From Gammaproteobacteria bacterium (lineage in GTDB: Bacteria; Pseudomonadota; Gammaproteobacteria; Steroidobacterales; Foliamicaceae), in assembly GCA_965116895.1 (NCBI GenBank), contig OZ220729.1, positions 1,882,122-1,946,121 on the forward strand: DNA of 64,000 nucleotides, in the 5' to 3' direction. Positions 5,669 to 50,344 of the stretch are shown piece by piece. Positions within the stretch are counted from its first letter, which is position 1; every line of letters begins with the position of its first letter. The notes beneath the pieces were generated by a model, which worked only from the letters and a program-made list of their open reading frames with translations, had not been told where the DNA came from and did no database searches. The position numbers and the translations under genes are program-made.

Positions 5669-7081
5669 ATGGAAAACCGGAAAGACGCAAGCCCGTCGCA
5701 CGCGCCTGAAGCGACGGGAGCGGGAGAGGCAGTCTCAAGAGCACTGCGCATCAACTTCGGCGCCGGAGCGCTGGGCATGGCGATCGTACTGAACACGCTG
5801 GCCGGCATTCTTGCGCCGTTCATGACCAACTTTCTGGGCATCGGCGCCGCAACGGTGGCGGCGCTGCTGCTGGCCTCCAAGCTCTACGACATGGTGACGG
5901 ACCCGCTCATGGGCGTACTCAGCGACCGCACCCGAACCCGCTGGGGCCGCCGCCGCCCCTTCCTTTTTCTCGGCGGCATCGTGACCGCCGCGGGCTTCTT
6001 CCTGATCTTCAATCCGCCGCAGCTGGACCATAGCCCCGCCCTGCTCAACGCCTGGGTGCTGGGCGCGCTGCTGCTGACCTACACCGGCTACACGCTGTTC
6101 AACATTCCCTACCTGGCCATGCCCGCCGAGATGACCACCCACTATCACGAACGCACGGCGCTGATGTCGTGGCGCACCGTGTTCATCAACGTGGGCGCGC
6201 TGCTTGCGTTTTTTTCGTTTGCCCTCGTGGAATGGCTGGGCAACGATCGCCAGGCGCACGGCGCCATGGGGCTGATCTACGCCGCGCTGATTGCAGGTGG
6301 CTCAATCTACTGCTTCTTCGGCCTCGCCTCAGCCCGCCAGACCACCGCCGCGCCGCGCGCGAAAACGCCTTCGATCCGGCGCCAGGTCCGCACCATCGCG
6401 GCGAACCGGCCGCTGATGAGCCTGCTGGGCGCCAAGCTGTGCCAACTCCTGGGGCTTGCGGCGTCCGGCGCGGCAGGCGTTTATTTCAAGGTCGTCATTC
6501 TCAAGATGAGTTACACGCAAACGACCTGGTTCCTGGTGGTGAACGTCGCCGTGATCCTGGCCGCCATCCCTCTGTGGAACCGCGTGTCGCGCAGGCACGG
6601 CAAACGGCTCACGTACATGATCGCAACCGGGTGCTTCGCCCTGACTGCCTCCACCTGGCTGCTGGCCACTGCCGCCGATCCGCTGTCGTACATCTTTGCG
6701 CGGGCCGTCTTCCTCGGCTTTTTCGCCAGCGGCGTGATCATAATGGGCGCCGCGCTTCTGCCCGACGCCGTCGAGTATGACTACATCAAAACGGGAATGC
6801 GGCGCGAAGCCACGATGTCCGCGTTCTACGCCACGGTCGAAAAACTGGCGTTCGCCGCCGGCCCGGCCCTGGCGCTGTTGATGCTGAGCGCATTCGGCTA
6901 CCAGTCCGGCACCGAGGGCATGCAGATCGAACAGCCGGAAAGCGCGATCAACGCCATTTACGTGACCGCGGGGCTGGCCCCGGCGCTGCTTTACGGGATG
7001 AGCCTCATATTCCTGGCCAACTACGACCTGACGGAAGAAAAACTCAAGTCGGCGCGCGCCGCAAGCGCCGCGGCCGGCTGA
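5669..7081 (+). CDS. MFS transporter, GPH symporter family, copy 2 (tandem paralog)
   Basis: ATG at 5669 with GAGGGAG upstream. Collinear with copy 1 along its whole length (SKLYDMVTDPLMGVLSDRTRTRWGRRRPFLFLGG; ALLPDAVEYDYIKTGMRREA). Confidence 0.8.
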   Translation: MENRKDASPSHAPEATGAGEAVSRALRINFGAGALGMAIVLNTLAGILAPFMTNFLGIGAATVAALLLASKLYDMVTDPLMGVLSDRTRTRWGRRRPFLFLGGIVTAAGFFLIFNPPQLDHSPALLNAWVLGALLLTYTGYTLFNIPYLAMPAEMTTHYHERTALMSWRTVFINVGALLAFFSFALVEWLGNDRQAHGAMGLIYAALIAGGSIYCFFGLASARQTTAAPRAKTPSIRRQVRTIAANRPLMSLLGAKLCQLLGLAASGAAGVYFKVVILKMSYTQTTWFLVVNVAVILAAIPLWNRVSRRHGKRLTYMIATGCFALTASTWLLATAADPLSYIFARAVFLGFFASGVIIMGAALLPDAVEYDYIKTGMRREATMSAFYATVEKLAFAAGPALALLMLSAFGYQSGTEGMQIEQPESAINAIYVTAGLAPALLYGMSLIFLANYDLTEEKLKSARAASAAAG

Positions 7082-7237: not shown

Positions 7238-9643
7238 ATGAAATTGCCCGCAGCAAATCTGGCTGCGACGGCCACGTTGCTGGCGCTGTTGCCATTCGGA
7301 GCCATCCAGACCCCGGCACTTGCCCAGGAGGCGGTGCTTGAAGAGATCATCGTCACGGCGCGCAAGCGCGAAGAGAATCTGTTCGACATCCCGGTCGCGA
7401 TCACCGCCATTACAGGAGAGCAGATCGAGAATCTCGGTCTCAACGACCTGCAGGACGTGGCGAAGATCGTGCCCGGCCTGACCTTCGACCGCTCGGTCAC
7501 GCAGAATGATTACGCGCCGGCCCTGCGCGGCCTGCAGGCGGAACAGGGCCGCAACAGCGTTGGCCTGCTGATCGACGACATCGATATTTCATCGCAGAAC
7601 GTGCAGGTGGCCGGCGGCGGCAGCCTGGCGCGCCTGCGGCTGGTGGACGTCGAGCGGATCGAGGTCGTAAAGGGGCCGCAGGCGGCCCTCTACGGCCGCT
7701 CCGCATTCGGCGGCGCGGTGAACTACATCACCAAGCGCCCCAGCCTGGACGAATACGATCTGAAGGCCGGGTTAGACGTGCACAGCGAGTCCGGCCACGA
7801 AATTACCGTCTCCGGCGGGGCGCCTGTGATCGAAGACGCGTTCGGCGTGCGGGTCAACGCCTACTACTTCGACGAGCGGGGCTCGTACAAGAACACGGTT
7901 TCCGACGCCTATGTGGGCGGCGGCGACGGGATGGGCATTTCGGCTGCATTCCTGCTCCAGGCAAACGAGAACTTTTCCGTTTACGGGCGGCTGGAATACT
8001 CCGACGAGAGCTACGCGCCACAGGCCGCGTTCGTGATCAACGGCAATACCGACGTAACTCTGGTCGACGGCGCCGAAATCGTACTCAACAGGCCCACCAC
8101 AAGAATCTTTTCCGGACCGCTTGTGGACGGTCCGATCAGGTTCGACATCAATCACCGCACCGGCGAGGACTACAAGGGCATGGACGTCGAGTATTTCCGC
8201 GCCACGGTCATCGCCGACTGGGACGCCGGCGACTTCGGGCTCAAGTCGCTGACCAGTTGGGTGGACTCGAACGACGACATCTTCCAGGACAACGATTTCG
8301 TCAGCGGGTCGGTGAACGGCATGGTGGTCGGCGCATTCCAGGAAACGGAACGGATCAATGACACGGTGCAGTTCAGCCAGGAGGTCCGGATCTTCTCGCA
8401 GGCGGACAGCCGTTTCCAGTGGCTCCTGGGGGCCTTGTACTGGAAGGAAGACGTGGACCAGTTCGGCAGCAACGACACCGGCCTGGCGCTCGGGCCCATC
8501 CTCGATTCCGACGTCCACGCCTTCTACGACACGCGCGACGGTGAGGGCCGCAACGTCAGCCGCTACACGGACCACCAGTCGGTTTTTGCCTGGTCGGAGT
8601 ATGCGCTTACCGAGCAACTGTTCGTTTCCGCCGAAGTCCGCTACACGGACGAGGAGATACAGCACATACTGGACTTCGATCCGCCGTTCAATTTCTTCTT
8701 CGGCGTGATCTCGCTCGGTGGCGTAGCGCCGCCGATACTGAGTTCGTTTGGCCAGGTCACCGGCATTCACTCCGAGACAATCACCGAGAAGTACACGATC
8801 CCCCGGGTCGCGCTAAGCTACCGGCCCGACGACAATCTGAACCTGTACGGGGCCATCGGAAAGGGCGTCAAGCCTTCCGGCTTCCAGGACGGCGCGGTGT
8901 TCTCGCTCGACAGGCCCTTCGACCGTGAATCGCTGTGGTCGTATGAAGTGGGCGCCAAGGCCCTGCTGATGGGCGGCGCGCTGGCCGTCAACACGGCCGC
9001 CTTTTTCCAGGACTACACGGACCAGCAGGTCTCCTCGCAGATCTTCAATGAAGAGGCGCAGCAGTTGCAGCCGGTGATCGAGAATGCCGGCAAATCGACG
9101 GTCTGGGGGCTTGAGTTCGAGGCGAACTGGCGAGCTTCGGAAGAATTGACCCTGTCCGGCGCCTACACCTACATCAACGGGGAGTTCGACAATTTCCGGG
9201 TGGTTTCCACCAGCGCATCGAGGATCGGCGAGAGCGGCTGCGGCGAATTCCTGGACTTCGCCCGGCCCGCCTGTCTCCTGATCAAGGACGGCAATCGGCC
9301 GGCGGACCTGCCCGAGCATCAGCTGAATCTCAACGGCAACTACACCGCCAGCCTTAACGGCAACTGGGACTGGTTTACCGACTTGAGCGCACGCTACACG
9401 TCCGAGCGCTTCGTTTCTTCCGCCAATGTAGCCACGCAAGACGCTTACTGGCGGGTAGACGGCCAGCTCGGGGTCCGCAGCGAGAGCATGCGCGCCGCGC
9501 TTTACGTGGACAACCTGCTGGATGACGACACCGTCACCGACGGCAATCTATACGTGGACTTCTTCAACGGGTTCGCGCCGTCCGGCTTCGGCTACCGTCC
9601 GATCCCGCGAACAGTGGGTCTGCGGGTGAGCTACAGCATGTAG
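7238..9643 (+). CDS. TonB-dependent receptor (TBDR-1)
   Basis: Signal peptide (LLALLPFGAIQTPALAQE), TonB-box/plug region (LEEIIVTARKREENLFDIPVAITAITGEQI), and a long beta-barrel with alternating aromatic/Gly pattern. Confidence 0.85.
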   Translation: MKLPAANLAATATLLALLPFGAIQTPALAQEAVLEEIIVTARKREENLFDIPVAITAITGEQIENLGLNDLQDVAKIVPGLTFDRSVTQNDYAPALRGLQAEQGRNSVGLLIDDIDISSQNVQVAGGGSLARLRLVDVERIEVVKGPQAALYGRSAFGGAVNYITKRPSLDEYDLKAGLDVHSESGHEITVSGGAPVIEDAFGVRVNAYYFDERGSYKNTVSDAYVGGGDGMGISAAFLLQANENFSVYGRLEYSDESYAPQAAFVINGNTDVTLVDGAEIVLNRPTTRIFSGPLVDGPIRFDINHRTGEDYKGMDVEYFRATVIADWDAGDFGLKSLTSWVDSNDDIFQDNDFVSGSVNGMVVGAFQETERINDTVQFSQEVRIFSQADSRFQWLLGALYWKEDVDQFGSNDTGLALGPILDSDVHAFYDTRDGEGRNVSRYTDHQSVFAWSEYALTEQLFVSAEVRYTDEEIQHILDFDPPFNFFFGVISLGGVAPPILSSFGQVTGIHSETITEKYTIPRVALSYRPDDNLNLYGAIGKGVKPSGFQDGAVFSLDRPFDRESLWSYEVGAKALLMGGALAVNTAAFFQDYTDQQVSSQIFNEEAQQLQPVIENAGKSTVWGLEFEANWRASEELTLSGAYTYINGEFDNFRVVSTSASRIGESGCGEFLDFARPACLLIKDGNRPADLPEHQLNLNGNYTASLNGNWDWFTDLSARYTSERFVSSANVATQDAYWRVDGQLGVRSESMRAALYVDNLLDDDTVTDGNLYVDFFNGFAPSGFGYRPIPRTVGLRVSYSM

Positions 9644-9654
9644 CGATCCTCGAC

Positions 9655-10518
9655 GTGCACCCGAAGGTAACGCAGGAAATCATCGACGCCTACAGGGAAA
9701 TAGGCGTGGCCCACGTGCCGGGCGTCTTCCCGGAGGAATGGGTCGAACGCATGACGCAGGTCATCGATTCGGTCGTCGCCGGGCTGCGCGACGGCTCGGT
9801 CGTTTTCGGCCCCCACGAGACCATGCGCGACGTGGAATTCGAGGACCACGACGGCTACGTGCGGCTGGTCAACGCCTACTGGCGAGTGCCGGAGATGCAG
9901 TCGCTGGTCGAGGACTGCGGCTGCGCCGAGATCGTCGCCGACGTGATCGGTTCGGACGAAATGCGCGCCTGGGTGGACGGCACGTTCCTGAAGGAGGGCA
10001 ACAAGGAGGAAACGGCCACGCCCTGGCACAACGACGAGTGCCTGTTCCCGTTCTCGGGCGAGCACAGCCCGTCGATGTGGGTGGCCCTGACCGACATGGG
10101 CCCGGACAATGCGCCCCTGCTGACCCTGGCCGGTTCCAACAGGGACCCGCACCGCTACGTGAGTTCCTGGGCGCTTGACGGCGTGGAAGCGCCACCCAAT
10201 TTCCATCCCTGGTCGGAACTGCTGGAGCGGGTCGCCGCGCCGGATGCGGACATTCGCGTGTGGGAAGCGCGCTCCGGCGACATGCTGATCATCCACCCGA
10301 AGACGATCCACGCCTCCAAACCGCGCACGGCCGGCCATGCGGGCCGCCGCCTCGGGTTCTCGCTGCGCTGGATCGGCAGCGACATCCGCTACCAGTTCAA
10401 TCCGACGGCCCGAAAGAACCCGTTCGAGGGCAGCGAGCTCTTGACGGAGGGCGAACGCATTCCCGATAAGGTCATGCCCGTGACCTGGCGGCGGGCGCCG
10501 CGCAAGAAAGCCGCCTGA
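9655..10518 (+). CDS. Fe(II)/2-oxoglutarate dioxygenase, phytanoyl-CoA dioxygenase (PhyH) family
   Basis: GTG start 12 nt after the TBDR-1 stop. HxD motif in TPWHNDE and a distal His in IIHPKTIHASKPR. Length and layout are typical of the PhyH family. Confidence 0.65.
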   Translation: MHPKVTQEIIDAYREIGVAHVPGVFPEEWVERMTQVIDSVVAGLRDGSVVFGPHETMRDVEFEDHDGYVRLVNAYWRVPEMQSLVEDCGCAEIVADVIGSDEMRAWVDGTFLKEGNKEETATPWHNDECLFPFSGEHSPSMWVALTDMGPDNAPLLTLAGSNRDPHRYVSSWALDGVEAPPNFHPWSELLERVAAPDADIRVWEARSGDMLIIHPKTIHASKPRTAGHAGRRLGFSLRWIGSDIRYQFNPTARKNPFEGSELLTEGERIPDKVMPVTWRRAPRKKAA

Positions 10519-10544
10519 GTGTATTGCCGGCAGAATCGCCCGGC

Positions 10545-11360
10545 ATGACCATCCGCCGCACGCTCGTTGAGACACCATCGGGCTTCGTCCACGTCCGGTC
10601 CGCCGGCTCCGGTTCTCCTATCCTGCTGCTGCACTGGACTCCCGCATCCAGCCGTCAATACGTCCCGGTGCTCGAGAAACTCGGCAATTCAGGATACGCC
10701 GGCTACGCACCGGACAACATGGGTTATGGCCAGTCCGACCCCCGCCCCGCTCCGTGGCTGGTAAAGGACTATGCCGACAACATCGCCGCGGTAATGGACG
10801 GGCTGGGGCTGGAGTCCGCAGCCGTGGTGGGCGGCCACGTGTCTTCCGAATTCGCGGTCGAACTCTCGCTTCGCCATCCCGCGCGCGTAACGCATCTCGT
10901 TCTCGACGGCTGCCCGGTCTGGGACCGCGCTTTTCGCGACGAGGTGCTCAGCGTGTCCCGGCAACCGGCGCCGGACTGGTCGGAGGACGGCGCCCACATC
11001 GCCTGGGTATGGGAGCGGTCGCTGTGGCTGCAGCGCATGTGGGATTCGAAATTCCAGCTGGACGACGCCGGCGCCGCCCTGCTCCGCAACGCGGTCATCG
11101 ACAGCATGCTGGCGCAGCAGATGGACGACGCCACCGAAGCGCTCAGGGAATACGAGATGGGGGACGCGCTAAAGACGGTCCGCGTTCCGACGCTTGCGCT
11201 CACGGCCGAGACGGATCCGTTGAACAACTGTCACGAGAAGGTGCTGGAGTTGGTTGAGGGCTCGGTGGGCCACACTTTCGAGGGTGGTCATCCGCATCAC
11301 TATCCGGAAAAGGCGGGCGAGTACGTGGGCGTTATCCTGGAGTTTCTTCGTCGGGCGTGA
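10545..11360 (+). CDS. Alpha/beta-hydrolase-fold protein with atypical nucleophile elbow (GGHVS)
   Basis: ATG at 10545; the track start 10524 is a TTG. Fold motifs: LLLHWTP (oxyanion region), APDNMGYGQSD, elbow VVGGHVSSEF, C-terminal GGHPH. Homologous to the product of 50345..51298. Confidence 0.65.
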   Translation: MTIRRTLVETPSGFVHVRSAGSGSPILLLHWTPASSRQYVPVLEKLGNSGYAGYAPDNMGYGQSDPRPAPWLVKDYADNIAAVMDGLGLESAAVVGGHVSSEFAVELSLRHPARVTHLVLDGCPVWDRAFRDEVLSVSRQPAPDWSEDGAHIAWVWERSLWLQRMWDSKFQLDDAGAALLRNAVIDSMLAQQMDDATEALREYEMGDALKTVRVPTLALTAETDPLNNCHEKVLELVEGSVGHTFEGGHPHHYPEKAGEYVGVILEFLRRA

Positions 11361-11613
11361 GGGCGGTGATGGTCAGGGCGTGGATGGGGCCCTGCATCAT
11401 TTCGTCCAGGGCAGCGTAAACAAGGCGGTGGCGGGCGAGCGGGGCTAGGCCGTCGAACTGCTCCGCTACGATGCGGACCGAATAGTGCCCCCCGCCGTCG
11501 CGGGCGCCCACATGCCCCACATGAAGGTGCGAATCGTCCTGCACTTCGACATCGCAGGGCGCCAGCGCCTCAAGAAGCCGGGCGCGGATCAGGGACGGGC
11601 GATCGGCGGTCAA
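11332..11613 (-). CDS. BolA-family protein
   Basis: 93 aa with BolA-like core (VEVQDDSHLHVGHVGA..GGHYSVRIVAEQFDG...RHRLVYAAL). TTG start overlaps the yciB stop. The 3' end overlaps the convergent gene by 29 nt. Confidence 0.7.
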   Translation of the reverse strand: MTADRPSLIRARLLEALAPCDVEVQDDSHLHVGHVGARDGGGHYSVRIVAEQFDGLAPLARHRLVYAALDEMMQGPIHALTITALTPDEETPG

Positions 11614-12167
11614 TCGCCTTCAACCGTCTTCATGGACCGGACAATCCAGATTCCCTGCAGCAGGCCGAACACGAGGGTCAGGCTGGTCAAGCCGAAAAGC
11701 TTGAAATAAACCCAGGTGGCTTCGCTGAAGCTGTAGGCCACCCAGATGTTGAGCGCGCCCATCACGACAAAGAACAGCAGCCATGCCCAATCCAGTGCCG
11801 ACGCCGTGCGGGCAGGCACAGCGGAAAAGCCTTCCGCCTGCGACGCCAGGATCGCATGGATCACGCCCTTGCGCTTCCACAGGCGCGCGCCCACAAGCGC
11901 CACGCTCATTGCCCAGTAGAGGACCGTCGGCTTCCACTTGATGAACACGGGGTCCTTCAGCACCACGGTCAGCGTGCCGAACACCAGCACCAGCCCCGCG
12001 GAGGCCAGCGTGATCGGCTTCGGCTTGTAGCGGCCGCCGAGCAGCCACTGCGCGGCAACCTGCACGATCACGGCGCCCATGAGCACCCACACGGCCGGGA
12101 TCAGCCCCCACAGAAGATAGGCCGCGAGGAACGGCACAAGAAAGAAAAAGTCCAGAAAAACCTGCAC
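11610..12167 (-). CDS. yciB: Intracellular septation protein A (YciB/IspZ)
   Basis: 185 aa, GTG start. YciB-like N-terminus (VQVFLDFFFLVPFLAAY) and KDPVFIKWKPTVLYW segment. Five hydrophobic spans. Confidence 0.8.
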   Translation of the reverse strand: MQVFLDFFFLVPFLAAYLLWGLIPAVWVLMGAVIVQVAAQWLLGGRYKPKPITLASAGLVLVFGTLTVVLKDPVFIKWKPTVLYWAMSVALVGARLWKRKGVIHAILASQAEGFSAVPARTASALDWAWLLFFVVMGALNIWVAYSFSEATWVYFKLFGLTSLTLVFGLLQGIWIVRSMKTVEGD

Positions 12168-12226
12168 GGCGGCGCAAATGATAGCGCGCCCGGCGGGCCG
12201 GGAAACGCGCTGACTATAATTCGCCG

Positions 12227-13699
12227 ATGCTCAATTTCTTCCGACATCCGCGGGGCCTGATCACCCTGTTCTTCACGGAGATGTGGGAGCGCATGAGCTA
12301 TTACGGCATGCGCGCCCTGCTCGTGCTGTTCATGGTCGATCAAGTGCAACGGGGCGGCATGGGCCTGACCGACGAGATCGCCACCGCGATATACGGCGTC
12401 TATACGGCAGCCGTGTATCTGGTCGCCCTTCCCGGTGGCTGGATGGCGGACCGGCTTCTGGGCGGCCAGCGGGCGGTCTGGGCGGGCGGCATCATCATCA
12501 TGTGCGGGCACTTCGTGCTCGCCGTTCCGACCGTCGCCGCCTTCTACATGGGGTTGATCCTGGTGGTGCTGGGCACCGGCCTGCTCAAGCCCAACATCAG
12601 CGCCCTGGTCGGGCAACTCTACTCGCCCACGGACCCGCGGCGTGACGGCGGCTTCACGCTGTATTACCTCGGCATCAACGTCGGCGCGTTCCTCGGACCT
12701 CTGGTTTGCGGTTGGCTGGCCGACTACAACTGGCACTACGGCTTCGCCGCCGCCGGCGTGGGCATGCTGTTTGGCCTGATTCAGTTCTATTACACCCGCG
12801 AGTACCTGGGTGAGGCCGGCGCCCGTCCCGAGTCGGCGGCGTCCGCCGCCTACCGCAGGAAAGTCTGGTTCGGCGTGGCGGGCTTCCTGGCCGCAATCGC
12901 CGCCGTATATGCCGGGGCGCTGGCCGGCGCGATCGAACTGAACGCGCGCGCCATCGCCGAAGCGAGCGCGCTCGTGATCGTGATCGTGGCGGCGATCTAT
13001 TTCCTGTTCCTGCTGTTTCTTGGCGGACTCACGCGCGACGAACGACTTCGCGTGATCGGCATCATCGTCCTGTTCTTCGGCGCCGCCATGTTCTGGGCGG
13101 GCTTCGAGCAATCCGGCTCGTCGCTCAACCTGTTCGCCGAGCGCTACACGATCCGCGAGTTCGGCTCCTTCAGCTTCCCGGCCGAGTGGTTCCAGTCGCT
13201 CAATCCCTTCTTCATCATCGTCCTGGGACCGCTGTTCGCGATGCTGTGGACGGCCCTGGCGCGGCGCAATCTCGATCCTTCCACGCCGCTGAAGTTCGCG
13301 TTCGGCCTCATTCAACTCGGCCTGGGGTTCGTGGTAATGATCGGCGCCGCCACGCTGGTGGCCGAGGGCAACCCGGTGCTGCCCACCTGGCTGTTCTTTA
13401 CCTACCTGCTGCACACCACCGGAGAGCTTTGCCTGAGCCCGGTGGGACTTTCCGCCGTAACCCGGCTGGCGCCGAAGAAATACGTGGGCCAGATGATGGG
13501 CATCTGGTTCCTGGGCGCGTCGCTGGGGAGTCTGATTGCCGGCCTGATCGCGGGTGAGTTCGATCCCGAGGCCCTGGGCGACATGCCCGCGCTGTACTGG
13601 CAGATCGTGCTTACGACCGTGGGCAGCGGGCTGATTCTCGCCGTTTTCCTGAAACCACTGAAGAAGTGCATGACGCCTGCGGAGGAAGAAGACAAGTGA
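12227..13699 (+). CDS. Proton-dependent oligopeptide transporter (POT/PTR2 family, DtpT-like)
   Basis: PTR2 signature FFTEMWERMSYYGMRALLVLFM. About 14 hydrophobic spans. 490 aa. Confidence 0.85.
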   Translation: MLNFFRHPRGLITLFFTEMWERMSYYGMRALLVLFMVDQVQRGGMGLTDEIATAIYGVYTAAVYLVALPGGWMADRLLGGQRAVWAGGIIIMCGHFVLAVPTVAAFYMGLILVVLGTGLLKPNISALVGQLYSPTDPRRDGGFTLYYLGINVGAFLGPLVCGWLADYNWHYGFAAAGVGMLFGLIQFYYTREYLGEAGARPESAASAAYRRKVWFGVAGFLAAIAAVYAGALAGAIELNARAIAEASALVIVIVAAIYFLFLLFLGGLTRDERLRVIGIIVLFFGAAMFWAGFEQSGSSLNLFAERYTIREFGSFSFPAEWFQSLNPFFIIVLGPLFAMLWTALARRNLDPSTPLKFAFGLIQLGLGFVVMIGAATLVAEGNPVLPTWLFFTYLLHTTGELCLSPVGLSAVTRLAPKKYVGQMMGIWFLGASLGSLIAGLIAGEFDPEALGDMPALYWQIVLTTVGSGLILAVFLKPLKKCMTPAEEEDK

Positions 13700-15492
13700 T
13701 TACCCGAACCGTCGTCGCGGCGCTGGCCCTGACCCTGCCCGTCAGCGCATCGACCGAGAATACCCCGCTGCAAAGCGCCGAGAATTACGTCAGGGAAACC
13801 AGCGAGCGATACGAGGAACTTCGCCTGGAAGGCGCCGCGGCCGCCTGGGCCTACCAGACCTACATCACTCCGGACACGGCGCTGCTCGCCGCCAGGGCGC
13901 AGGAACGCGGGCTCAAGTTCCAGAGTTCCGCAGTCGAGGGCGCCAAACGCTATGACGGAATCGAGCTGGCCCCGCTGACGCAGCGCGCCATCAACGCGAT
14001 CAAGTGGGGGACGACGCTGCCGGCGCCGGACGACGACGCCAAGCGTCGCGAACTGTCCGAAATCATGACCCGCATGGAAGGCGCCTACGGCAGCGGAAAG
14101 TACTGCCCCGACGGGCCGGAAAGCTGCCGGGATCTGGAGCAGCTCAGCGTGGTCATGGCACACAGCCGCGACTACTACGAACTGCTGGAAGCATGGCGCG
14201 GATGGCGCACCATCTCTCCCCCGATCCGGGCCGATTACCAACGTTTCGTGGAACTGGGCAACGAGGGCGCGCGCGAACTGGGTTTCAACGACATGGGCGA
14301 GTTGTGGCGTTCCGGCTACGACATGCCGGTGGCCGATTTCGGCGACGAAGTGGAGCGGCTCTGGAGCCAGGTGTCGCCGTTGTACGAGCAATTGCACTGT
14401 TACACCGCCGACAGGCTCCGGCAGGCCTACGGCGAGGAAACCGTGCCCCCGGGCGAGCCCATTCCGGCGCACCTTCTGGGCAACATGTGGTCGCAGACCT
14501 GGGGCGAAATCTACGAACTGGCGGAGCCGTACCCTGGCGTGGCGGAACTGAACGTGACCGAGGCGATGCAGGACCAGGACTACAGCGCCGTCTACATGAC
14601 CGAACTTGCGGAGGATTTCTTCGTTTCGCTGGGCATGCCGACGCTGCCGGAGAGTTTCTGGCAGCGTTCGCTGCTGGTGAAACCGCAGGACCGGGAGGTG
14701 GTCTGCCACGCCAGCGCCTGGAGCATGGACGGCAAGGACGACGTGCGGATCAAGATGTGCATCGAGCCCACCCAGGATCACCTGTTCACGATCTATCACG
14801 AACTGGGGCACATCTACTACTTCCTGGCCTACAAGGATCAGCCGATCGTTTTCCAGTCCGGGGCCCACGACGGGTTCCACGAGGCCGTGGGCGACACGGT
14901 CACGCTATCGATGACCGGCGAGTTCCTGAAGAACCTGGGGCTGGTCGAGGAAGTAAAGGACAGTCCCGAGGCGCTGATCAACTCGCAGATGAAGCTGGCG
15001 CTGGACAAGATCGCCTTTCTGCCCTTCGGCAAGCTGATGGACCAGTGGCGCTGGGGCGTGTTCTCGGGCGAGATCGCGCCGGAGGACTACAACGCCGCCT
15101 GGTGGGACCTGCGCACCCGTTACCAGGGCATAAGGCCACCGGTGGAGCGCAGCGAGGCCGATTTCGACCCGGGCGCCAAGTACCACATACCGGGCAATAC
15201 GCCGTACACCCGCTACTTCCTGGCCTTCGTGCTGCAGTTCCAGTTCCAGAGGGCGCTGTGCGACGCCGCCGGATTCGAGGGACCGCTGCACGAGTGCTCG
15301 ATCTACGGCAACAAGGAGGCCGGCGCGCTGTTGTGGAAGATGCTGCAGTCCGGTTCCAGCCGGCCGTGGCAGGACTCGCTGGAAGCCGTCACCGGCCAGC
15401 GCGAAATGGACGCCTCGGCGATCATCGCCTATTTTCAGCCGCTGATGAACTGGCTTGAGACCCGGAACCAGGGCCTTTCCTGCGGCTGGTAA
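13696..15492 (+). CDS. Secreted M2-family peptidyl-dipeptidase (angiotensin-converting-enzyme-like)
   Basis: GTG at 13696 preceded by GGAGGA and overlapping the POT stop (GTGA). Signal peptide [14 protein letters not shown]. Zinc motif [10 protein letters not shown] plus GFHEAVGD, as in ACE-type M2 peptidases. Confidence 0.8.
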
Positions 15493-43000: not shown

Positions 43001-43294
43001 CTAGTCGTCGCCTTCCCGCAGCACGAAGTAGATCCGATCGATGAATTCCCTGCGCTCCCGATCGAGCGCGGCGCGCTCGTCCTCGCTGAATTCGTAGGCT
43101 TCCACGGCGGCGGTGCTTATGCCCGCCTTGCCGAGCGCTTCGACGGCCGCCAGGCGCTCCCTGACCGCCCAAAGCTCCTGCGCCAGGCCCATCGTGATGG
43201 ACACCAGTTCATCGACGCCCTGAACGTCGAAGAACCGCGGCTGCTTGCCGCGGGTCAGGTCCCTCAGCCGAGTCTCCGGGGAATCCTTGGACAA
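43001..43294 (-). CDS. Small hypothetical protein (64-97 aa, start uncertain)
   Basis: Coding-like codon usage between the methyltransferase stop (43305) and TBDR-3. Candidate starts are TTG 43294, GTG 43207 and ATG 43195. Sequence ..FFDVQGVDELVSITMGLAQELWAVRERLAAVEALG..EFSEDERAALDRERREFIDRIYFVLREGDD is predicted helical and I recognise no family. Confidence 0.4.
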   Translation of the reverse strand: MSKDSPETRLRDLTRGKQPRFFDVQGVDELVSITMGLAQELWAVRERLAAVEALGKAGISTAAVEAYEFSEDERAALDRERREFIDRIYFVLREGDD

Positions 43295-43304
43295 GGGCCC
43301 CGCC

Positions 43305-44504
43305 CTACTTCCAGGCTCCGAAGCAATACCAGCGGATCGACGGCACCAGGCGCCCGGTGTTCTCGTCCACGGTGATATCGTCCCGCGATACGTAAGCCTG
43401 CAGTTCCTCCTCGCCGTTGCGGGCAAGGCTGGGCACGATGAATTCCACGAAGTTCGACTCGTCGAATCCGCCCGCCGTGCAGCAGTCGATCGGACGCATG
43501 TCGCGGAACGCCTTGTAATAGGGCTCCTGGTTGTAGTAGCTGTCCCAGTCGAAGTAGAAACTCTCGTACGGCACGGTGTGGCAGTTCGGGGGCAGTTCCA
43601 TGTGCAGCATCAGCCCGCCGGGACGCAGCAGCCGGTATGCCTCGCGGAACACCGCCCGCACTTTCTTGGGCGGCAATTCGTGCAGGAACATCGACGACCA
43701 GACGATGTCGAAACCGGGCTCGCCGTCGAAATCGCATTGCGAGGCGTCCATTTGCCGGTAATGAACCCGCGCGCCCAGCACTTCGGCGCGGGCGTGGGCG
43801 TAACGCAGCATTGGCGCCGCGACGTCCACGGCATGGACCTCGGCTTCGGGAAACGTGCGCGCCCAGGGCAAGGTATTCGAGCCGATCGAGCATCCCATGT
43901 CGAGGATGCGGCGCGGGCGAAATTCCGGAAATTTCAGCGAAATGAAGCGCGCGATGCTGCTGCCGATGTCGTCGCGCTCGCTGCCGAACAGCCCCATGCT
44001 GAACACGGCGCCGCCGTTGTCGTACAGCGCGCCCGCGGCCACGTCGTCGTCGCCGTATTCCGTGTGGTAGCAGCCCGGCATCAGGTGCACGTCGTGGTTG
44101 GCCACGTACGGCGGCGTTTCCAGGTCCGGGTCGAGCGTAATCGAACCGCCTTGTCCGCCTCCGTTGGCGTCCACGCCGGCGACCCTGCGGTTCAGGTCTT
44201 CCAGGTTGCGTTCGATGGTGGGGATGACCGATCGCCAGACGAGTTTCTGGCAGTTCACCCGCATGGCCGAATAGAAGCGGTAGGAACTCTCGCCCCGCAT
44301 CGCCCTGTGAACTTCCGCGCCGTCGGCGGGCTCCCGGCCGTTTTTGCGAACGAGTTCCGGTTTCACCTTAGTGTGGTATGCGGAGCGCATTCCGTTCGCC
44401 AGGTCCCCCAGGATGTGGCGGCGTATGTCGGAGACGAAACGCTGGCGCGACAACTCGTCCCGGGTGGGCTTGATCCGCAGGTCGTGGCGTACGTGGTCGG
44501 TCAT
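43305..44504 (-). CDS. Class I SAM-dependent methyltransferase with ~170-aa N-terminal extension
   Basis: SAM motif I ILDMGCSIGSNTL, post-I AVDVAAPML, motif IIVWSSMFLHELP, LLRPGGLML. The N-terminal region is unassigned. Confidence 0.75.
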   Translation of the reverse strand: MTDHVRHDLRIKPTRDELSRQRFVSDIRRHILGDLANGMRSAYHTKVKPELVRKNGREPADGAEVHRAMRGESSYRFYSAMRVNCQKLVWRSVIPTIERNLEDLNRRVAGVDANGGGQGGSITLDPDLETPPYVANHDVHLMPGCYHTEYGDDDVAAGALYDNGGAVFSMGLFGSERDDIGSSIARFISLKFPEFRPRRILDMGCSIGSNTLPWARTFPEAEVHAVDVAAPMLRYAHARAEVLGARVHYRQMDASQCDFDGEPGFDIVWSSMFLHELPPKKVRAVFREAYRLLRPGGLMLHMELPPNCHTVPYESFYFDWDSYYNQEPYYKAFRDMRPIDCCTAGGFDESNFVEFIVPSLARNGEEELQAYVSRDDITVDENTGRLVPSIRWYCFGAWK

Positions 44505-44647
44505 TACGGCAGTCCTCCCTTGCCCGGAATCATACTACGCGGCCGTTTTGTGCGGCCACGTCGTTGAACTTCAGCGATGGCGCGCGGAATTCCGTTTAGA
44601 CTTAGCGCCCCGCCGGTCGGAGAGACCGGGAAACTGAGGGGTACTTG

Positions 44648-45658
44648 GTGAGCGAGGAAATCATTGCGCCGGACGGATCGCCCTTGCGGGCCGCCGTTAT
44701 CGGCTGCCGCGACGTCGAAAAGTCACTGGCCTTCTACCGGGACCGCATCGGCCTGTCGGTGCTTGCCGACGAGGTCCTGGGCGGCCCGGCCTTTCGCAGC
44801 TTCTGGAACCTGAACGGCGGAGCCTCCGCCCGAGCCGTCCTGCTGGGGCAAGGCGACGAGGGGGTCGGGCAGGTCCTTCTGCTCGACTTTCATCTGCCCG
44901 AAGGCAGCGCCAGTCCCGTGGAAATCCGCGATCGCAGCATTGTCCGGGCCTATGGATGCTTCAATCTCAATTTCTATACTGCCGACATTCACCGCGATTT
45001 CGAGGGCTTGAAGAAAGACGGCTACGTCCTCTGGTCCGATCCCGTCCAGCACTTTTTCGGGGACGACGTGGGCGATCCCATAGAAGGCATTTTCGAAGGT
45101 CCCGACCGCGTGCCGATCAACCTGGTGGAACTCGCCACCCGCGACACGGCGACGCGCGTGGGCCAGATGCGCGCCTACGTCGAGCAGCGCGGCTATACCG
45201 ATGCCGGCTTCACGCCCATCGTGACCAGTTCGCATGGCGTGGATTCGAGCGAACGCGCGATGGCCTTTTACGAACAGGTCCTGAACATGAAGCCGCTGAT
45301 CGACGAGGTCCTGGGCACGCCGGAGTCCAACCGCCTGCTGAACCTGCCCGAGGACGCGAAGACCCGCGTCGTGTTCATGCAGGGCAACCACATGTTCGGC
45401 AAGGTGGTGCTGAGCCAGCCGCTGAATTACGAGTGCGAGTCCCTGATCGAGCGGGCCAAACCCCCGAACGTCGGTTACCTGGCACAAACCTTCGCGGTCG
45501 GCGACCTGGAGGAGGCGGCCGGCAGGTGCAGCGCGCTGAAAGCGGAGGTCCTGAGCAAGCCCCAGGAAACTCCATGGCCCGGTTCGGGCAGCGTTTCCGC
45601 GATGCTGGTGCGGAACCCCGGCAGCGGAGCGCTGCAGATATTGATGGAGGATGCGTAA
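44648..45658 (+). CDS. Two-domain VOC (glyoxalase/bleomycin-resistance/extradiol-dioxygenase) family protein 1
   Basis: GTG 44648 lies 6 nt after GAGGGG; TTG 44645 is also possible. Repeated beta-alpha-beta-beta-beta modules (LRAAVIGCRDVEKSLAFYRDRIGL.. and IVTSSHGVDSSERAMAFYEQVLNM..). Confidence 0.65.
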   Translation: MSEEIIAPDGSPLRAAVIGCRDVEKSLAFYRDRIGLSVLADEVLGGPAFRSFWNLNGGASARAVLLGQGDEGVGQVLLLDFHLPEGSASPVEIRDRSIVRAYGCFNLNFYTADIHRDFEGLKKDGYVLWSDPVQHFFGDDVGDPIEGIFEGPDRVPINLVELATRDTATRVGQMRAYVEQRGYTDAGFTPIVTSSHGVDSSERAMAFYEQVLNMKPLIDEVLGTPESNRLLNLPEDAKTRVVFMQGNHMFGKVVLSQPLNYECESLIERAKPPNVGYLAQTFAVGDLEEAAGRCSALKAEVLSKPQETPWPGSGSVSAMLVRNPGSGALQILMEDA

Positions 45659-46614
45659 TGAGCGTTTACGGCATGACTTCGGTGACCGTCGGCGTAAGCG
45701 ACATCGATGAGTCGCTGGGACTCTTTCGCGACGTGATTGGACTGCAGGTGGAGAGCGACGGCGAGGCGCCGCGCGCGCTCCTCGATGCCTGGGGCCTGCC
45801 GCAGCACGTAACGGCGCGGCTGGTCGAACTGTCCTGCCGCGGCTATCCCGCCGGGCATCTGCGCCTGGCGCAGTATTCGCCCGCCGTGACCGAGGCCGTG
45901 CGGCTGGATCATGGAGCTGGCGCGGTCGATGGTTCCACCGACATCGGCCCCAAGGCGATCGATTTCTATGTTCCGACGCCAATGAGCGCCGCCGTCGAAG
46001 CGATCACCGGTGCCGGATACACTTTCCGCTCCGAGCCGATCCGCTACGAATTGGGCGATATCGAAAGCGAGGAGTGCCTGTTTACGGGGCCCGACGGCGT
46101 GCCCGCCCTGCTGATGATCGGCCATAGACACCCGCCGGAGGCGATGCGCGCCCTGCCGGCCGGCGTCCGTTTTTCCGAAATCGCCACGACGTCCGTCATA
46201 TGCGCGGATCCCGAAGCGGCGCGTGCGTTGTATTGCGACGCACTGGGACTGGAATCCGGTACCGACGCCTGGGTGGCGGAAGAAAACCTGGATCTGGCAC
46301 GCCGCCTCACCGGCGTCCCGAGCTGCACGGGCATGTATTTCCTGCTGGTCCGCGCACCGGGCGAGCCCAGCGGCAAGCTCCTGTTCGTGCATTTCGCCGG
46401 CGTCCCGAGCAAGCGGCTCACCGGGAGAATGCGACCCGGAAAGCTGGGCGTGAACCTCTTCAGTTACAGGGCAAGCGACCTGGACGCCACGCTGGCGAAG
46501 GCCTGCGAATCCGGCGGAACTCTCCTGCGCGGGCCAACGCAAGTGGGCGGAACGCGCGTGGCGCTGCTGCTGGGCGCCAACGAGGAATTGCTGGAGCTGA
46601 CCGAAGGGGACTGA
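45658..46614 (+). CDS. Two-domain VOC family protein 2
   Basis: ATG at 45658 overlapping the previous TAA (TAATG). MTSVTVGVSDIDESLGLFRDVIGL.. and a second module IATTSVICADPEAARALYCDALGL... The track ORF 44956..46614 is an out-of-gene extension. Confidence 0.65.
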   Translation: MSVYGMTSVTVGVSDIDESLGLFRDVIGLQVESDGEAPRALLDAWGLPQHVTARLVELSCRGYPAGHLRLAQYSPAVTEAVRLDHGAGAVDGSTDIGPKAIDFYVPTPMSAAVEAITGAGYTFRSEPIRYELGDIESEECLFTGPDGVPALLMIGHRHPPEAMRALPAGVRFSEIATTSVICADPEAARALYCDALGLESGTDAWVAEENLDLARRLTGVPSCTGMYFLLVRAPGEPSGKLLFVHFAGVPSKRLTGRMRPGKLGVNLFSYRASDLDATLAKACESGGTLLRGPTQVGGTRVALLLGANEELLELTEGD

Positions 46615-46615
46615 G

Positions 46616-47464
46616 TTGTCGACGGAAACCCGCCGGGGCGGTCCGGTCGATCTGCGCCGGCTGGAGTCCGAGGCAATACTCATCCTGCGCAAAGCGGTCG
46701 AGGCGTTTCGCCGGCCGGTGCTGCTGTTCTCGGCCGGCAAGGACTCGGCGGTGATGTTGCGCCTCGCCCAGAAGGCATTCGCGCCTTCGCTGCCTCCGTT
46801 TCCTCTGCTGCATGTGGACACGAACTGGAAGTTCCCGGAGGCCTATGAGTACCGGGACCGGACCGCGAACGAAGCGGGCATGAAGCTGATCGTCCACGTC
46901 AACCGGGAAGGACTTGCGCGCGGAATCGGGCCGTTCAGCCACGGCGCGGAGACCCATGTCCGTGTCATGAAGAGCGAGGCTCTGCAAGAGGCCCTGGAGC
47001 GCTACGGTTTTGACGTCATGATCGACGGGGCGCGGGGCGACGAGGAGCGATTCAGAGGCGACTCGCGACGCTCCGACACGCCCTCCGGCGGCGGCGGGGC
47101 GGCGCGCGCGTTCCCGCTGCGCAACTGGACCGAGCTTGATGTGTGGCGCTACGTTCAGGCGGAAGACATCCCGCTGCCGACGCTCTACTTTGCCGCGCCG
47201 CGGCTGGTGGTGCGGCGGGACGGACTGCTGATCGTCAGGGCCGACGAGCGAATGACGCTGGCGAACGACGAGAAGGCCACGATGCGCACGGTGCGGTTCC
47301 GCACGCTGGGGTGCTGGCCGCTGACGGGCGCCGTGGAATCGGATGCGGCGGACGTTGCAGGCGTTCTGCGCGAACTTCGCCGCGCCCGGACTCCCGAGCG
47401 GTCGTGGCGCGCCATCGACCGGCCGGCCGCCGAAGCGGCCGGAAAGCGGGAGCCGCGCCCTTGA
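46616..47464 (+). CDS. CysD-like PP-loop ATP pyrophosphatase (sulfate adenylyltransferase subunit 2 homolog) lacking an internal conserved segment
   Basis: TTG start after GAAGGGGA. PP-loop LLFSAGKDSAVML, PFPLLHVDTNWKF, VRFRTLGCWPLTGAVES. The region between GARGDEE and FPLRNWTE is about 20 residues shorter than canonical CysD (comparison from memory). Confidence 0.7.
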   Translation: MSTETRRGGPVDLRRLESEAILILRKAVEAFRRPVLLFSAGKDSAVMLRLAQKAFAPSLPPFPLLHVDTNWKFPEAYEYRDRTANEAGMKLIVHVNREGLARGIGPFSHGAETHVRVMKSEALQEALERYGFDVMIDGARGDEERFRGDSRRSDTPSGGGGAARAFPLRNWTELDVWRYVQAEDIPLPTLYFAAPRLVVRRDGLLIVRADERMTLANDEKATMRTVRFRTLGCWPLTGAVESDAADVAGVLRELRRARTPERSWRAIDRPAAEAAGKREPRP

Positions 47465-48048
47465 ACGCGCGAGACCCAGGCCCTGCCCCCGCCGGGAGGG
47501 GAAGGCGTCTGCACGAAGCCCGAAAGCCCTGCATTCTCTGGTTGACCGGCTTGCCCGCCGCGGGAAAGACGACCCTCGCCCGGGAAATCGCCCGCAGGCT
47601 TGAAACGCTTAGCGTCCGCGCCTTCGTGCTGGACGGCGACGACCTCCGCCTGGGTCTCAACAGCGACCTCGGGTTCAGCCGCGCGGCCCGCGACGAGAGC
47701 GTTCGCCGAGCCGGCCACGCCGCCAAACTCCTTCTCGACGCCGGAACGATCGCGGTGGCTGCCCTGATCTCGCCCTTCCGCGACCACCGCCAGCGGATCC
47801 GCGAACTGGCCGGCCCCGACCGGTTCGTGGAGATCTTCGTCGACGCGCCGCTTCATGTGTGCGAACGGCGCGATCCGAAGGGGCTTTACGCCAGCGCGCG
47901 GGCCGGCGATATCCAGGACGTCACCGGCATCGATTCACCCTACGAACCGCCTGAAAATCCGGATATCCGGCTGCGGTCTGCGGAAAGCCCACCGGACGAA
48001 CTGGCGGGCCAGGTGATCCGCTACCTTAAGGAAAGGGAATACATATAG
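47461..48048 (+). CDS. cysC: Adenylylsulfate (APS) kinase
   Basis: TTG at 47461 overlapping the previous stop (TTGA). P-loop LWLTGLPAAGKTTLA, LDGDDLRLGLNSDLGFS, ISPFRDHR, VCERRDPKGLY, GIDSPYEPPENPD. Confidence 0.85.
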   Translation: MNARDPGPAPAGRGRRLHEARKPCILWLTGLPAAGKTTLAREIARRLETLSVRAFVLDGDDLRLGLNSDLGFSRAARDESVRRAGHAAKLLLDAGTIAVAALISPFRDHRQRIRELAGPDRFVEIFVDAPLHVCERRDPKGLYASARAGDIQDVTGIDSPYEPPENPDIRLRSAESPPDELAGQVIRYLKEREYI

Positions 48049-48054
48049 AGCGCC

Positions 48055-48164
48055 GCGTCCTGGTTCGCCCCATGCCGCGGCGGAGCGTCGGCGGCAGGAG
48101 CCGCCGCCGAGCCCCAGGGATGGGTTCATGCGTCTCCGACGCGGCATGGGGCGAACCAGGACGC
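48055..48164. terminator. Perfect 25-bp inverted repeat with ~60-nt spacer (contains an inner GC hairpin); putative bidirectional terminator or REP-like element
   Basis: 48055-48079 gcgtcctggttcgccccatgccgcg is the exact reverse complement of 48140-48164. Inner hairpin cggcggc-agga-gccgccg. It sits between convergent cysC and TBDR-4 and touches the TBDR-4 stop codon. Confidence 0.5.
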
Positions 48165-50236: not shown

Positions 50237-50344
50237 ACTCGCTATATCGCCGGGCGGGAAATCATTTCCAGGACATCCGGCTGCCTGATAAGATTCGCCC
50301 GGTTGCGCCCGGAGGATTCCGAACGACGCGTCAGGGGGAATAGA

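Follow-up and report, generated by a model that had tools for sequence, protein, structure and literature searches.

Histidine at the nucleophile elbow of two alpha/beta-hydrolase-fold proteins from a gammaproteobacterial genome, and the pairing of one of their subfamilies with a PhyH-family dioxygenase

Introduction

In the sections of a 2024 survey of alpha/beta-hydrolase catalytic sites considered here, serine, aspartate and cysteine nucleophiles are listed together with nucleophile-free dyads, histidine does not figure among the nucleophiles, and families of the fold lacking catalytic residues are also described (PMC11878206). Here we analyze two proteins of this fold, ABH1 and ABH2, that carry a histidine at the nucleophile elbow and are encoded in a 64,000-nucleotide stretch (hereafter the window) of contig OZ220729.1 of a Gammaproteobacteria bacterium (assembly GCA_965116895.1, positions 1,882,122 to 1,946,121; G+C content 65%). 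Each gene adjoins one for an Fe(II)/2-oxoglutarate (2OG) dioxygenase, which belongs to the PhyH family in the case of ABH1 (module 1) and to the TauD family in the case of ABH2 (module 2; Table 1). The nearest relatives of the window are gammaproteobacterial metagenome-assembled genomes (91% protein identity) and Candidatus Foliamicus (77–87%), on which the open-access literature yielded no paper.

Epoxide hydrolases, haloalkane dehalogenases and fluoroacetate dehalogenases are among the best matches to these proteins (phmmer 3.8e-14 for 8HGU; Foldseek E 8e-17, TM ~0.7–0.78), with which they share the core fold, a helical cap and a D-x-x-G-x-G-x-S motif after beta4; ABH1 also has in common with them a His after beta8 and an Asp after beta7. 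Unlike these enzymes, however, both proteins have His in place of the nucleophilic Asp, the HGxP motif reads HW[TL]P or HP/HQ, and the cap bears a clade-specific EDGxH..W motif. The alkyl-enzyme ester intermediate of epoxide hydrolases and dehalogenases is chemically impossible with His, and the NCBIfam model for haloalkane dehalogenases is matched at 47 bits against a cut-off of 241. The serine hydrolases of the AidH, PFE aryl-esterase and PcaD enol-lactonase type have the same fold and length and are the top matches of the ABH2-family profile (AidH 1.9e-11), but a His stands where AidH has its catalytic Ser102. The 3-oxoadipate enol-lactonase PcaD (TIGR02427), the best partial NCBIfam hit, is matched at 51.9 bits by ABH1 and 32.2 bits by ABH2 against a cut-off of 255.85. 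Thus both proteins depart from the catalytic definition of their nearest groups in the nucleophile, in the HG motif and, for ABH2, in the triad.

The likeness extends to pathway organization in two cases. A class I S-adenosylmethionine (SAM) methyltransferase recurs near the alpha/beta-hydrolase gene, as in the BioC–BioH pair; unlike in that pair, the two genes seldom share an operon, the alpha/beta-fold protein has no nucleophilic Ser, and the models are matched far below their cut-offs (BioH TIGR01738: 21.7 bits for ABH1 and 19.7 bits for ABH2 against 206.95). PhyH-initiated alpha-oxidation consists of a hydroxylase followed by a thiamine-dependent lyase. Both this pathway and the TauD/AtsK-type systems found near TonB receptors resemble the present loci in combining a dioxygenase, a second enzyme and an uptake system, whereas the partner here is an alpha/beta-fold protein rather than a thiamine-dependent lyase. 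Our literature search retrieved nothing specific on clusters of PhyH, TonB receptor and hydrolase genes.

Finally, the fold is known to support general-base, non-hydrolytic chemistry, the examples in the parts of the literature considered here being hydroxynitrile lyases, D/E–H dyad carboxy-lyases and the cofactor-free dioxygenases HOD and QDO (PMC11878206, PMC10548524, PMC3444685). The resemblance of ABH1 to these nucleophile-free enzymes would be one of mechanism only, since no specific sequence relationship was seen. To our knowledge, such families have either retained the Ser or lost it, and a His elbow is not known from any of them. Likewise, neither a His nucleophile nor a GXHXG elbow in an alpha/beta hydrolase was found in the open-access literature, which is not proof of absence.

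Results and discussion

Histidine occupies the nucleophile position in both proteins

ABH1 and ABH2 both match Pfam Abhydrolase_1 (45.8 and 37.4 bits, respectively; cut-off 25.8). Their AlphaFold2 (AF2) models show the predicted order of strands and helices expected for the alpha/beta-hydrolase fold, and Foldseek connected the two models to >1,500 alpha/beta hydrolases in the PDB at E ≤ 1e-3, all of them generic Ser or Asp enzymes with no closer structural relative among them. The motifs quoted in the initial annotation of this DNA are all present, namely HWTP (residues 37–40), PDNMGYGQSD (63–72), GGH (254–256) and the elbow VVGGHVS in ABH1, and GYHTG in ABH2.

That annotation had placed a His at the nucleophile position of ABH1 by manual alignment, and had noticed the same feature in a second copy, ABH2. 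Both observations hold under independent methods. In phmmer alignments, His105 of ABH1 (GGHVS) falls on the Asp of GHDVG in 8HGU, an epoxide hydrolase from Bosea, and on Ser102 of the lactonase AidH (GWSLG), a residue that is S in 4G8C and G in 4G8B. Because 4G8B is an S102G mutant according to its Foldseek description, the aligned column is the experimentally defined catalytic serine. For ABH2 (GYHTG), phmmer pairs His154 with the GHDWG Asp of 6UNW, a soluble epoxide hydrolase, and a profile of 44 ABH2-family sequences aligns it with Ser102 of AidH. In a profile-free MAFFT alignment of 91 sequences, the His column holds Ser (13) or Asp (12) in the 28 outgroup proteins. The AF2 models agree: His105 is predicted as the sole residue between strand 99–104 and helix 106–117 of ABH1 (mean predicted local distance difference test score, pLDDT, 93), and His154 lies between predicted strand 148–152 and helix 155–166 of ABH2 (pLDDT 89). 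Taken together, pairwise, profile and MAFFT alignments and the AF2 secondary structure confirm that His occupies the beta5–alphaC nucleophile position in both proteins.

A shifted register, in which neighboring S107 or S108 of ABH1 or T155 of ABH2 would be the real nucleophile of an ordinary hydrolase, is suggested by the hydroxyl residues that GGHVSS and GYHTG place one to three positions after the His. We give this reading very little probability: four independent alignment methods agree on the His, and the AF2 models make it the junction residue and predict the Ser and Thr to lie inside helix alphaC. Within the ABH1 family, moreover, residue 107 alternates between S and G and residue 106 varies, and we accordingly rejected S107 and T155 as candidate nucleophiles. 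The statement that the alpha/beta-fold partner is unlikely to be a classical serine hydrolase was therefore well founded: classical catalysis by a Ser, Asp or Cys nucleophile is excluded for both ABH1 and ABH2, as the elbow has none of these residues, and the oxyanion glycine of the HG motif is replaced as well.

The elbow histidine is a fixed family character

The elbow His is present in 80/80 cluster representatives of the ABH1 family and in 116/117 of the ABH2 family, while nine of the ten next hits beyond the ABH1 family (E ≥ 4e-16) carry Ser, the tenth being an apparently frameshifted copy. Among genes fetched with their genomic or metagenomic loci, His was found in 33/33 of the ABH1 type, 85/88 of the ABH2 type and 13/20 intermediates (131/141 in total). 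The elbow His is thus a fixed family character and not a chance substitution. Outgroup proteins from the same scan read HGxP..GHDxG or GxSxG.

The two families surround this residue differently. In the ABH1 alignment (A3, outgroups excluded), G103, G104, H105, D128, G129, H256 and P257 are invariant and H37, W38, D231 and H259 nearly so, which gives the subfamily the motif set HW[TL]P .. GGH .. LDG .. D231 .. H256-P-x-H259. ABH1 keeps the canonical triad His and Asp (H256 and D231, with D128 also conserved), and the residue following the nucleophile position (Nu+1, position 106) is V, L, F, S or N across the subfamily. In the ABH2 alignment, G152, H154, T155, G156 and H82 are invariant, and neither the canonical His after beta8 nor the acid after beta7 is conserved; ABH2 of the window has a His in LSHG, a column that is His in 38 of 88 family members. 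The oxyanion Gly of HG/HGxP is replaced in both, with HW or HM in the ABH1 family and HP, HQ or HA in the ABH2 family (HW and HP, respectively, in the window proteins).

Sporadic non-Asp elbows also occur outside this clade, in otherwise ordinary HGxP epoxide-hydrolase-like proteins (GHHLG, GHELG, GHGLG and GAHRG; loci L058:5944-6783, L095:344-1183, L082:4422-5249 and L083:5968-6873).

ABH1 and ABH2 belong to one large, unannotated clade

ABH1 and ABH2 are specifically related: comparison of the two family profiles with hhalign gave a probability of 99.95% and an E-value of 7.6e-38 over 267 columns (24% identity), the cap motif EDGxH..W is common to both families and specific to the clade, and a neighbor-joining tree built without the elbow and HG columns placed the His-elbow sequences in one split (bootstrap 71/100; 87/100 for the ABH1 family). 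The term paralog, which the initial annotation had used for ABH2, is correct in implying a specific relationship but overstates its closeness, as the two proteins share 34% identity over only 108 residues by BLASTP. The families are bridged by an intermediate group (HQSP..GHHTG..LNG) that scores equally on both profiles, and whose genes lie directly beside ABH1-type genes in two Sphingomonadaceae loci.

When 1.84 billion representatives were searched exhaustively with the clade profile, 1,970 proteins scored at E ≤ 1e-30, a number that counts 50%-identity clusters and is an upper bound on the size of the clade. The best 146 of these 1,970 were inspected. Among them, 37 are single-domain proteins, all with the elbow His, and 109 are double-domain proteins of ~560 residues, in which the His is found in at least one half in 95 and in both halves in 29. 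Halves lacking the His mostly also lack the Thr at Nu+1 (its frequency falls from 0.79 to 0.34), whereas the cap motif, H37 and the cap residue H158 persist in them. H37 and H158 therefore look structural. The joint loss of His and Nu+1 Thr, which leaves a pattern of one apparently active and one degenerate site, argues at the sequence level for a catalytic role.

In many double-domain proteins (among P0138, P0139, P0145 and P0211–P0356), the elbow His of one half is replaced, usually by Gly. Tandem arrays of two to three single-domain paralogues are common (loci L150, L168, L170 and L173), and the 3.7-Mb genome WLWI01000002.1 holds at least four copies of clade genes. The frequency of double-domain proteins and tandem arrays suggests that these proteins work as dimers.

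This conservation bears on whether the proteins are enzymes at all. They could be pseudo-enzymes with a ligand-binding, scaffold or accessory role: both have lost the canonical nucleophile and the glycine of the HG motif, the ABH2 family has also lost the triad His and Asp, and alpha/beta-fold families without catalytic residues appear in the part of the 2024 survey considered here (PMC11878206). We regard a non-catalytic role as improbable, given that neutral loss would not fix one and the same residue in about 200 of 200 cluster representatives, that the ABH1 subfamily retains H256 and D231, that His is kept in at least one half of 95 of the 109 duplicated proteins, and that the genes stand in operons with enzymes and importers.

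Existing resources do not distinguish the clade. Public databases call its members "alpha/beta fold hydrolase" or "pimeloyl-ACP methyl ester carboxylesterase" and nothing more specific, the latter name being an automatic, COG-level JGI label that is not supported by the sequence comparisons. No NCBIfam model comes near its cut-off for ABH1 or ABH2, and no curated NCBIfam family covers the double-domain relatives. The PDB has no entry nearer than E ~1e-11 (ABH2) or ~1e-14 (ABH1), and all such entries are Ser or Asp enzymes.

ABH1 is consistently paired with a PhyH-family dioxygenase

In module 1, four genes run in one direction with short gaps, coding for an MFS_2 transporter, a TonB-dependent receptor, the PhyH dioxygenase and ABH1. 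The ABH1 open reading frame (ORF) spans 278 codons from a TTG at 10524, but since its homologues have 271 residues, the real start is probably the ATG at 10545, 26 nt past the PhyH stop codon. The PhyH protein matches PF05721 at 75 bits (cut-off 22) over profile positions 1–209 of 213, and keeps the HxD..H iron-binding motifs, with WHND and the distal His in IHPKTIH aligning with MysH (9C9N). MysH is also its closest solved relative, at only 5e-12.

An orthologue of the window PhyH lies within 3.5 kb of the ABH1-type gene in 19 of 20 informative loci (phmmer E 1e-49 to 1e-190), defined as ABH1-type genes with at least 2.5 kb of flank on both sides; the sole exception is the P0041-type gene of L027. 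No PhyH orthologue was detected near outgroup alpha/beta-hydrolase genes (0/56 loci). The pair is found in alpha- and gammaproteobacteria. In close relatives, PhyH is directly upstream of ABH1 with a gap of 2–48 nt, and in Nevskiaceae-, Steroidobacteraceae- and Sphingomonadaceae-type loci the two genes are divergent.

Reverse look-up from PhyH homologues retrieved an overlapping GGH-type ABH1 in one of two cases. In this case, a PhyH homologue of 45% identity has a 4-nt overlap with the ABH1 gene, and genes for a complete ABC importer of the Opp/Dpp type come next (L178:6001-12903; also L179 and L180). In the other, a PhyH orthologue of 50% identity (L177:4992-6846) overlaps the gene for a Ser-elbow alpha/beta hydrolase (GTSSG; weak Ndr-like Pfam match), which may be a non-orthologous replacement of the His-elbow protein. 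MT400 (a methyltransferase family described below), amine oxidase, CN_hydrolase and DUF1330 genes lie near the L177 pair. Two loci (L025:3416-6828 and L030:3-6801) each hold two pairs of PhyH and ABH1-like genes, the second pair being more divergent (ABH1 profile scores 240–266).

The pair usually has an importer beside it, which varies by locus, being a TonB receptor with an MFS transporter, an MFS transporter alone or an ABC system. Since L178–L180 have an Opp/Dpp-type ABC importer instead of TonB receptor and MFS, the uptake system can evidently be exchanged around a pair that itself stays constant. An orthologue of the window MFS_2 transporter (NCBIfam GPH 221 bits, slightly below cut-off) adjoins PhyH–ABH1 in loci L001 and L016–L021, and the TonB-dependent receptor is present in L016, L017, L019 and L021 and absent from L018 and L020.

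Genes downstream of module 1 (11332–15492) encode BolA and IspA/YciB on the minus strand and a POT peptide transporter on the plus strand, as well as a 608-aa ORF with a HELGH motif that we take to resemble an M2-type peptidase. As these are unrelated housekeeping and peptide-uptake genes, module 1 ends at 11360.

ABH2 is a probably exported relative with a lineage-specific TauD neighbor

The mechanically called ABH2 ORF covers 50204–51298 on the plus strand. The homologue length of ~317 aa and an AGGGGGA ribosome-binding site before the GTG at 50345 together point to that GTG as the real start, which is also the coordinate given in the initial annotation. The N-terminus reads HRRRLVQ-TMLAAPLAYVWA-RTGA|DQ, with a twin-arginine-type motif, a hydrophobic stretch and a candidate cleavage site, and ABH2 thus appears from its sequence to be exported by the twin-arginine translocation (Tat) route. 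A hydrophobic N-terminal extension was found in 64 of 74 ABH2-family members scanned, 41 of those 64 with an RR-type motif as judged by a motif heuristic; the ABH1 family has no N-terminal extension or signal peptide (median of 14 residues ahead of the first strand motif).

The TauD start codon overlaps the ABH2 stop codon (ATGA). The best PDB match of the TauD protein is Escherichia coli TauD (3e-62), and it misses the taurine dioxygenase equivalog (NCBIfam NF007104, 261.9 bits against a cut-off of 313). No signal peptide was detected in TauD, so ABH2 and TauD are probably in different compartments if the ABH2 signal is real.

In its neighborhood, ABH2 is less constant than ABH1. The divergent arrangement of TonB receptor and ABH2 is also conserved in L015, and TauD adjoins ABH2 only in relatives of 77–78% identity (L015 and L096–L098). 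No TauD or PhyH gene was detected in 77 of 77 more distant ABH2-type metagenome loci, and four other loci of ABH2 relatives (L009, L010, L012 and L013) have different neighbors. An ABH2–TauD cassette as a family-wide unit was rejected on this basis (adjacency in 0/77 more distant loci). PhyH and TauD of the window belong to unrelated families, with no similarity detectable between them (BLASTP E 0.43). ABH2 is therefore a probably exported GxHTG-type relative with a lineage-specific TauD adjacency, and the combination of His elbow and 2OG dioxygenase is a rule of the ABH1 subfamily rather than of the clade.

The recurrent two-enzyme cassette proposed in the initial annotation consequently stands for ABH1–PhyH (19/20 loci against 0/56 in the outgroup) and falls for ABH2–TauD. 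Similarly, its description of the second copy as joined to a 2OG dioxygenase and situated beside a TonB receptor is accurate for the window but does not generalize, the dioxygenases being unrelated and the compartments probably different.

Module 2 belongs to a larger cluster with sulfur genes

In L015, a relative of 78% identity, the gene order is methyltransferase, VOC, VOC, TonB receptor, ABH2, TauD. In the window, the small ORF, the methyltransferase and the two VOC genes form a block (43001–46614), which in L015 stands immediately next to TonB receptor, ABH2 and TauD. As the order is the same, module 2 is part of a cluster spanning ~43.0–55.6 kb of the window, into which CysD-like and adenylylsulfate (APS) kinase genes have been inserted. 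Genes for a BCCT transporter and a TPR-sulfotransferase follow on the minus strand (52113–55618). TPR-sulfotransferase genes also occur near other ABH2 relatives (L013, 62% identity, and L096–L099).

This context, together with the position of the His, raises the question of covalent catalysis. The elbow His, at the N-terminus of helix alphaC and beside the oxyanion-hole amides, would attack a phosphoryl, sulfuryl or acyl group to give an N-substituted His, and the protein would be a phosphatase, sulfatase or transferase. We consider this unlikely, although the His stands at the exact position from which Ser or Asp attacks in the relatives, His and Nu+1 Thr are lost together in degenerate domains, and module 2 lies amid sulfur genes (CysD-like, APS kinase, TauD and TPR-sulfotransferase), the last of which recurs in L013 and L096–L099. 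The sulfur context is confined to close ABH2 relatives, as most ABH2-type and all ABH1 loci are without sulfur genes, and the Nu+1 Thr is not conserved in the ABH1 subfamily. Moreover, the open-access literature and the sections of the 2024 survey considered here yielded no alpha/beta hydrolase with a His nucleophile (PMC11878206).

Export by the Tat route is relevant to another alternative, as this route often serves proteins that complete their folding and take up any cofactor prior to export. In this alternative, the elbow His would be a metal ligand in an active site rebuilt into a mononuclear metal center (in ABH1, H105 with H256, H259 or D128), and the protein would be a metallo-enzyme on an alpha/beta-hydrolase scaffold. 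ABH1 does conserve H105, D128, D231, H256 and H259 at catalytic-loop positions, and 41 of the 64 exported-looking ABH2-family members carry twin-arginine-type signals. Still, we hold a metal site to be quite unlikely: the clade as a whole conserves no three potential ligands alongside the elbow His, only ABH1 has retained H256 and D231, H37 and cap H158 are kept even in His-less domains and so look structural, and the Tat assignment is a motif heuristic only.

A methyltransferase family and other recurrent neighbors

Beside the VOC genes lies the gene for MT400, a class I SAM methyltransferase of ~400 aa whose N-terminal domain is unique. Members of this family lie within 6 kb of a His-elbow gene in 22/85 ABH2-type and 7/28 ABH1 loci (29/113), against 0/56 outgroup loci, and a copy taken from an ABH1 locus shares 35% identity with one from an ABH2 locus across 345 residues (E 4e-75). 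The MT400 family thus tracks the whole His-elbow clade. No curated NCBIfam family matched it at cut-off, BioC being matched weakly (55.6 against 185). MT400 was rejected as an operonic partner of the alpha/beta-hydrolase gene, as the gap ranges from 0 to 4.8 kb, every orientation occurs and the two are rarely in the same operon.

Of the remaining neighbors, the Glyox330 cluster, to which the first VOC protein is weakly similar, has a representative matching Pfam Glyoxalase. Neither the VOC proteins nor the small ORFs fall into a curated NCBIfam family, and the small ORF at 43001–43426 has no Pfam or NCBIfam match. A small protein of ~180–240 aa with a weak DUF7733 match is encoded in 13 of 28 ABH1 loci, and no copy was detectable in either window module. 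Where PhyH and ABH1 are divergent, its gene sits between them (L005:7320-7883, L006:7421-7951 and L028:5366-6085). Other recurrent neighbors are zinc-type dehydrogenases, CN-hydrolases, amine oxidases, cupins, DUF1330 proteins, SBP_bac_5 binding proteins and TonB receptors.

Overall, the neighborhoods have the look of catabolic islands of varying content, directed at small molecules that probably contain nitrogen. They contain hints of a sulfonate or sulfate ester, of a quaternary amine (BCCT), of a mycosporine-like compound (weak MysH similarity) and of a peptide- or opine-like compound (Opp-type importers), which are too variable to decide between, and we abandoned naming a substrate from context.

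Table 1 Features of modules 1 and 2 and of the surrounding cluster (positions are those of the window)
Feature	Position	Strand	Evidence or remark
MFS_2 inner-membrane transporter (GPH type), module 1, first gene	5669–7081	+	Pfam MFS_2 1.4e-81
TonB-dependent receptor, module 1	7238–9643	+	Pfam Plug and TonB_dep_Rec_b-barrel
PhyH-family Fe(II)/2OG dioxygenase, partner of ABH1	9655–10518	+	Pfam PhyH 1.4e-20
ABH1, alpha/beta-hydrolase fold	10524–11360	+	His105 at nucleophile elbow (GGH); retains H256, D231, D128
Codon CAC, elbow His105 of ABH1	10836–10838	+	
Small ORF upstream of MT400	43001–43426	-	Weak member of neighbor cluster small113, phmmer 9e-08
Class I SAM methyltransferase (MT400), ~400 aa, unique N-terminal domain	43305–44504	-	phmmer 3e-138 to the L111 methyltransferase
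VOC/glyoxalase-like two-domain protein, first	44645–45658	+	phmmer 2.2e-10 to cluster Glyox330 (weak)
VOC/glyoxalase-like two-domain protein, second	45655–46614	+	phmmer 1.8e-186, on enclosing ORF 44956–46614
CysD-like PAPS_reduct protein	46616–47464		
APS kinase	47461–48048		Likely start TTG 47461, overlapping the CysD-like stop
TonB-dependent receptor, module 2	48164–50236	-	Pfam Plug and barrel; divergent from ABH2, 108-bp spacer
ABH2, alpha/beta-hydrolase fold, probably Tat-exported	50345–51298	+	His154 at elbow (GYHTG)
Codon CAC, elbow His154 of ABH2	50804–50806	+	
TauD-family Fe(II)/2OG dioxygenase	51295–52116	+	Pfam TauD 7e-59, 200 bits (cut-off 27)
TPR and Sulfotransfer_3 protein	53648–55618	-	Stop overlaps likely BCCT transporter start at 53651

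A possible two-step route

Our tentative proposal, to which we assign somewhat less than an even chance, is that PhyH and ABH1 form a module in which ABH1 would convert the hydroxylated product of PhyH non-covalently, through the elbow His acting as general base or proton relay. A small molecule would be imported (in the window, by the TonB-dependent receptor and the GPH-type MFS transporter) and then hydroxylated by the PhyH enzyme, and the product would be passed to ABH1. There, H105 would serve as general base or proton relay backed by H256–D231 in a His–His–Asp relay, which is the weakest step of the scheme. ABH1 would thereby perform either a lyase-type cleavage like that of hydroxynitrile lyases or a hydrolysis by directly activated water, in both cases without passing through the acyl- or alkyl-enzyme stage typical of classical hydrolases of this fold. 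A non-covalent route is proposed because His cannot form the ester intermediates of Ser or Asp enzymes and because, in the survey sections considered, the fold supports general-base chemistry (PMC11878206). The pairing with a particular Fe/2OG oxygenase, combined with the His elbow, probably indicates unfamiliar chemistry.

Several observations weigh against this proposal. The general-base mechanism is argued from residue identity and from an analogy with alpha/beta-fold lyases, and no member of the clade has a solved structure. The wider clade does not conserve the canonical His and Asp, so the His–His–Asp relay cannot be its shared mechanism, for which only the elbow His is left, perhaps aided by the Nu+1 Thr. 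The Ser-elbow partner in L177 hints that the partner reaction may be plain hydrolysis. Finally, no fusion of PhyH with an alpha/beta-hydrolase domain was found among the 120 PhyH homologues listed.

A bolder alternative, which we judge doubtful, is that the His is itself the reactive center, whether as covalent N-nucleophile or as anchor for a metal or cofactor, and would define a new catalytic class within the fold, with ABH1 and PhyH forming a two-step route and MT400 taking part in the same metabolism. If so, this would be chemistry not yet ascribed to the alpha/beta-hydrolase fold, and ABH1–PhyH would represent a catabolic route of two steps, not described so far, by which an abundant metabolite of the sea or the soil is broken down.

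Implications

Whatever the reaction, these data define within a very well known fold a His-elbow clade that is sizeable yet unannotated, and that includes a subfamily locked to a PhyH dioxygenase. In one of the most studied enzyme scaffolds, an entire clade has fixed His where the sections of the 2024 survey considered here have only Ser, Asp or Cys (PMC11878206). The public names of its members imply a classical hydrolase triad that ABH1- and ABH2-type proteins lack. The tight pairing of ABH1 and PhyH, in turn, offers a concrete, testable two-enzyme system, and the genes are carried by cultured organisms, namely Sandaracinobacteroides saxicola and Thermaurantiacus tibetensis (ABH1 type) and Parasphingorhabdus (ABH2 type). 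With such cultured carriers it could be possible to find a new reaction and, along with it, the metabolite taken up for it by proteobacteria of marine and fresh waters.

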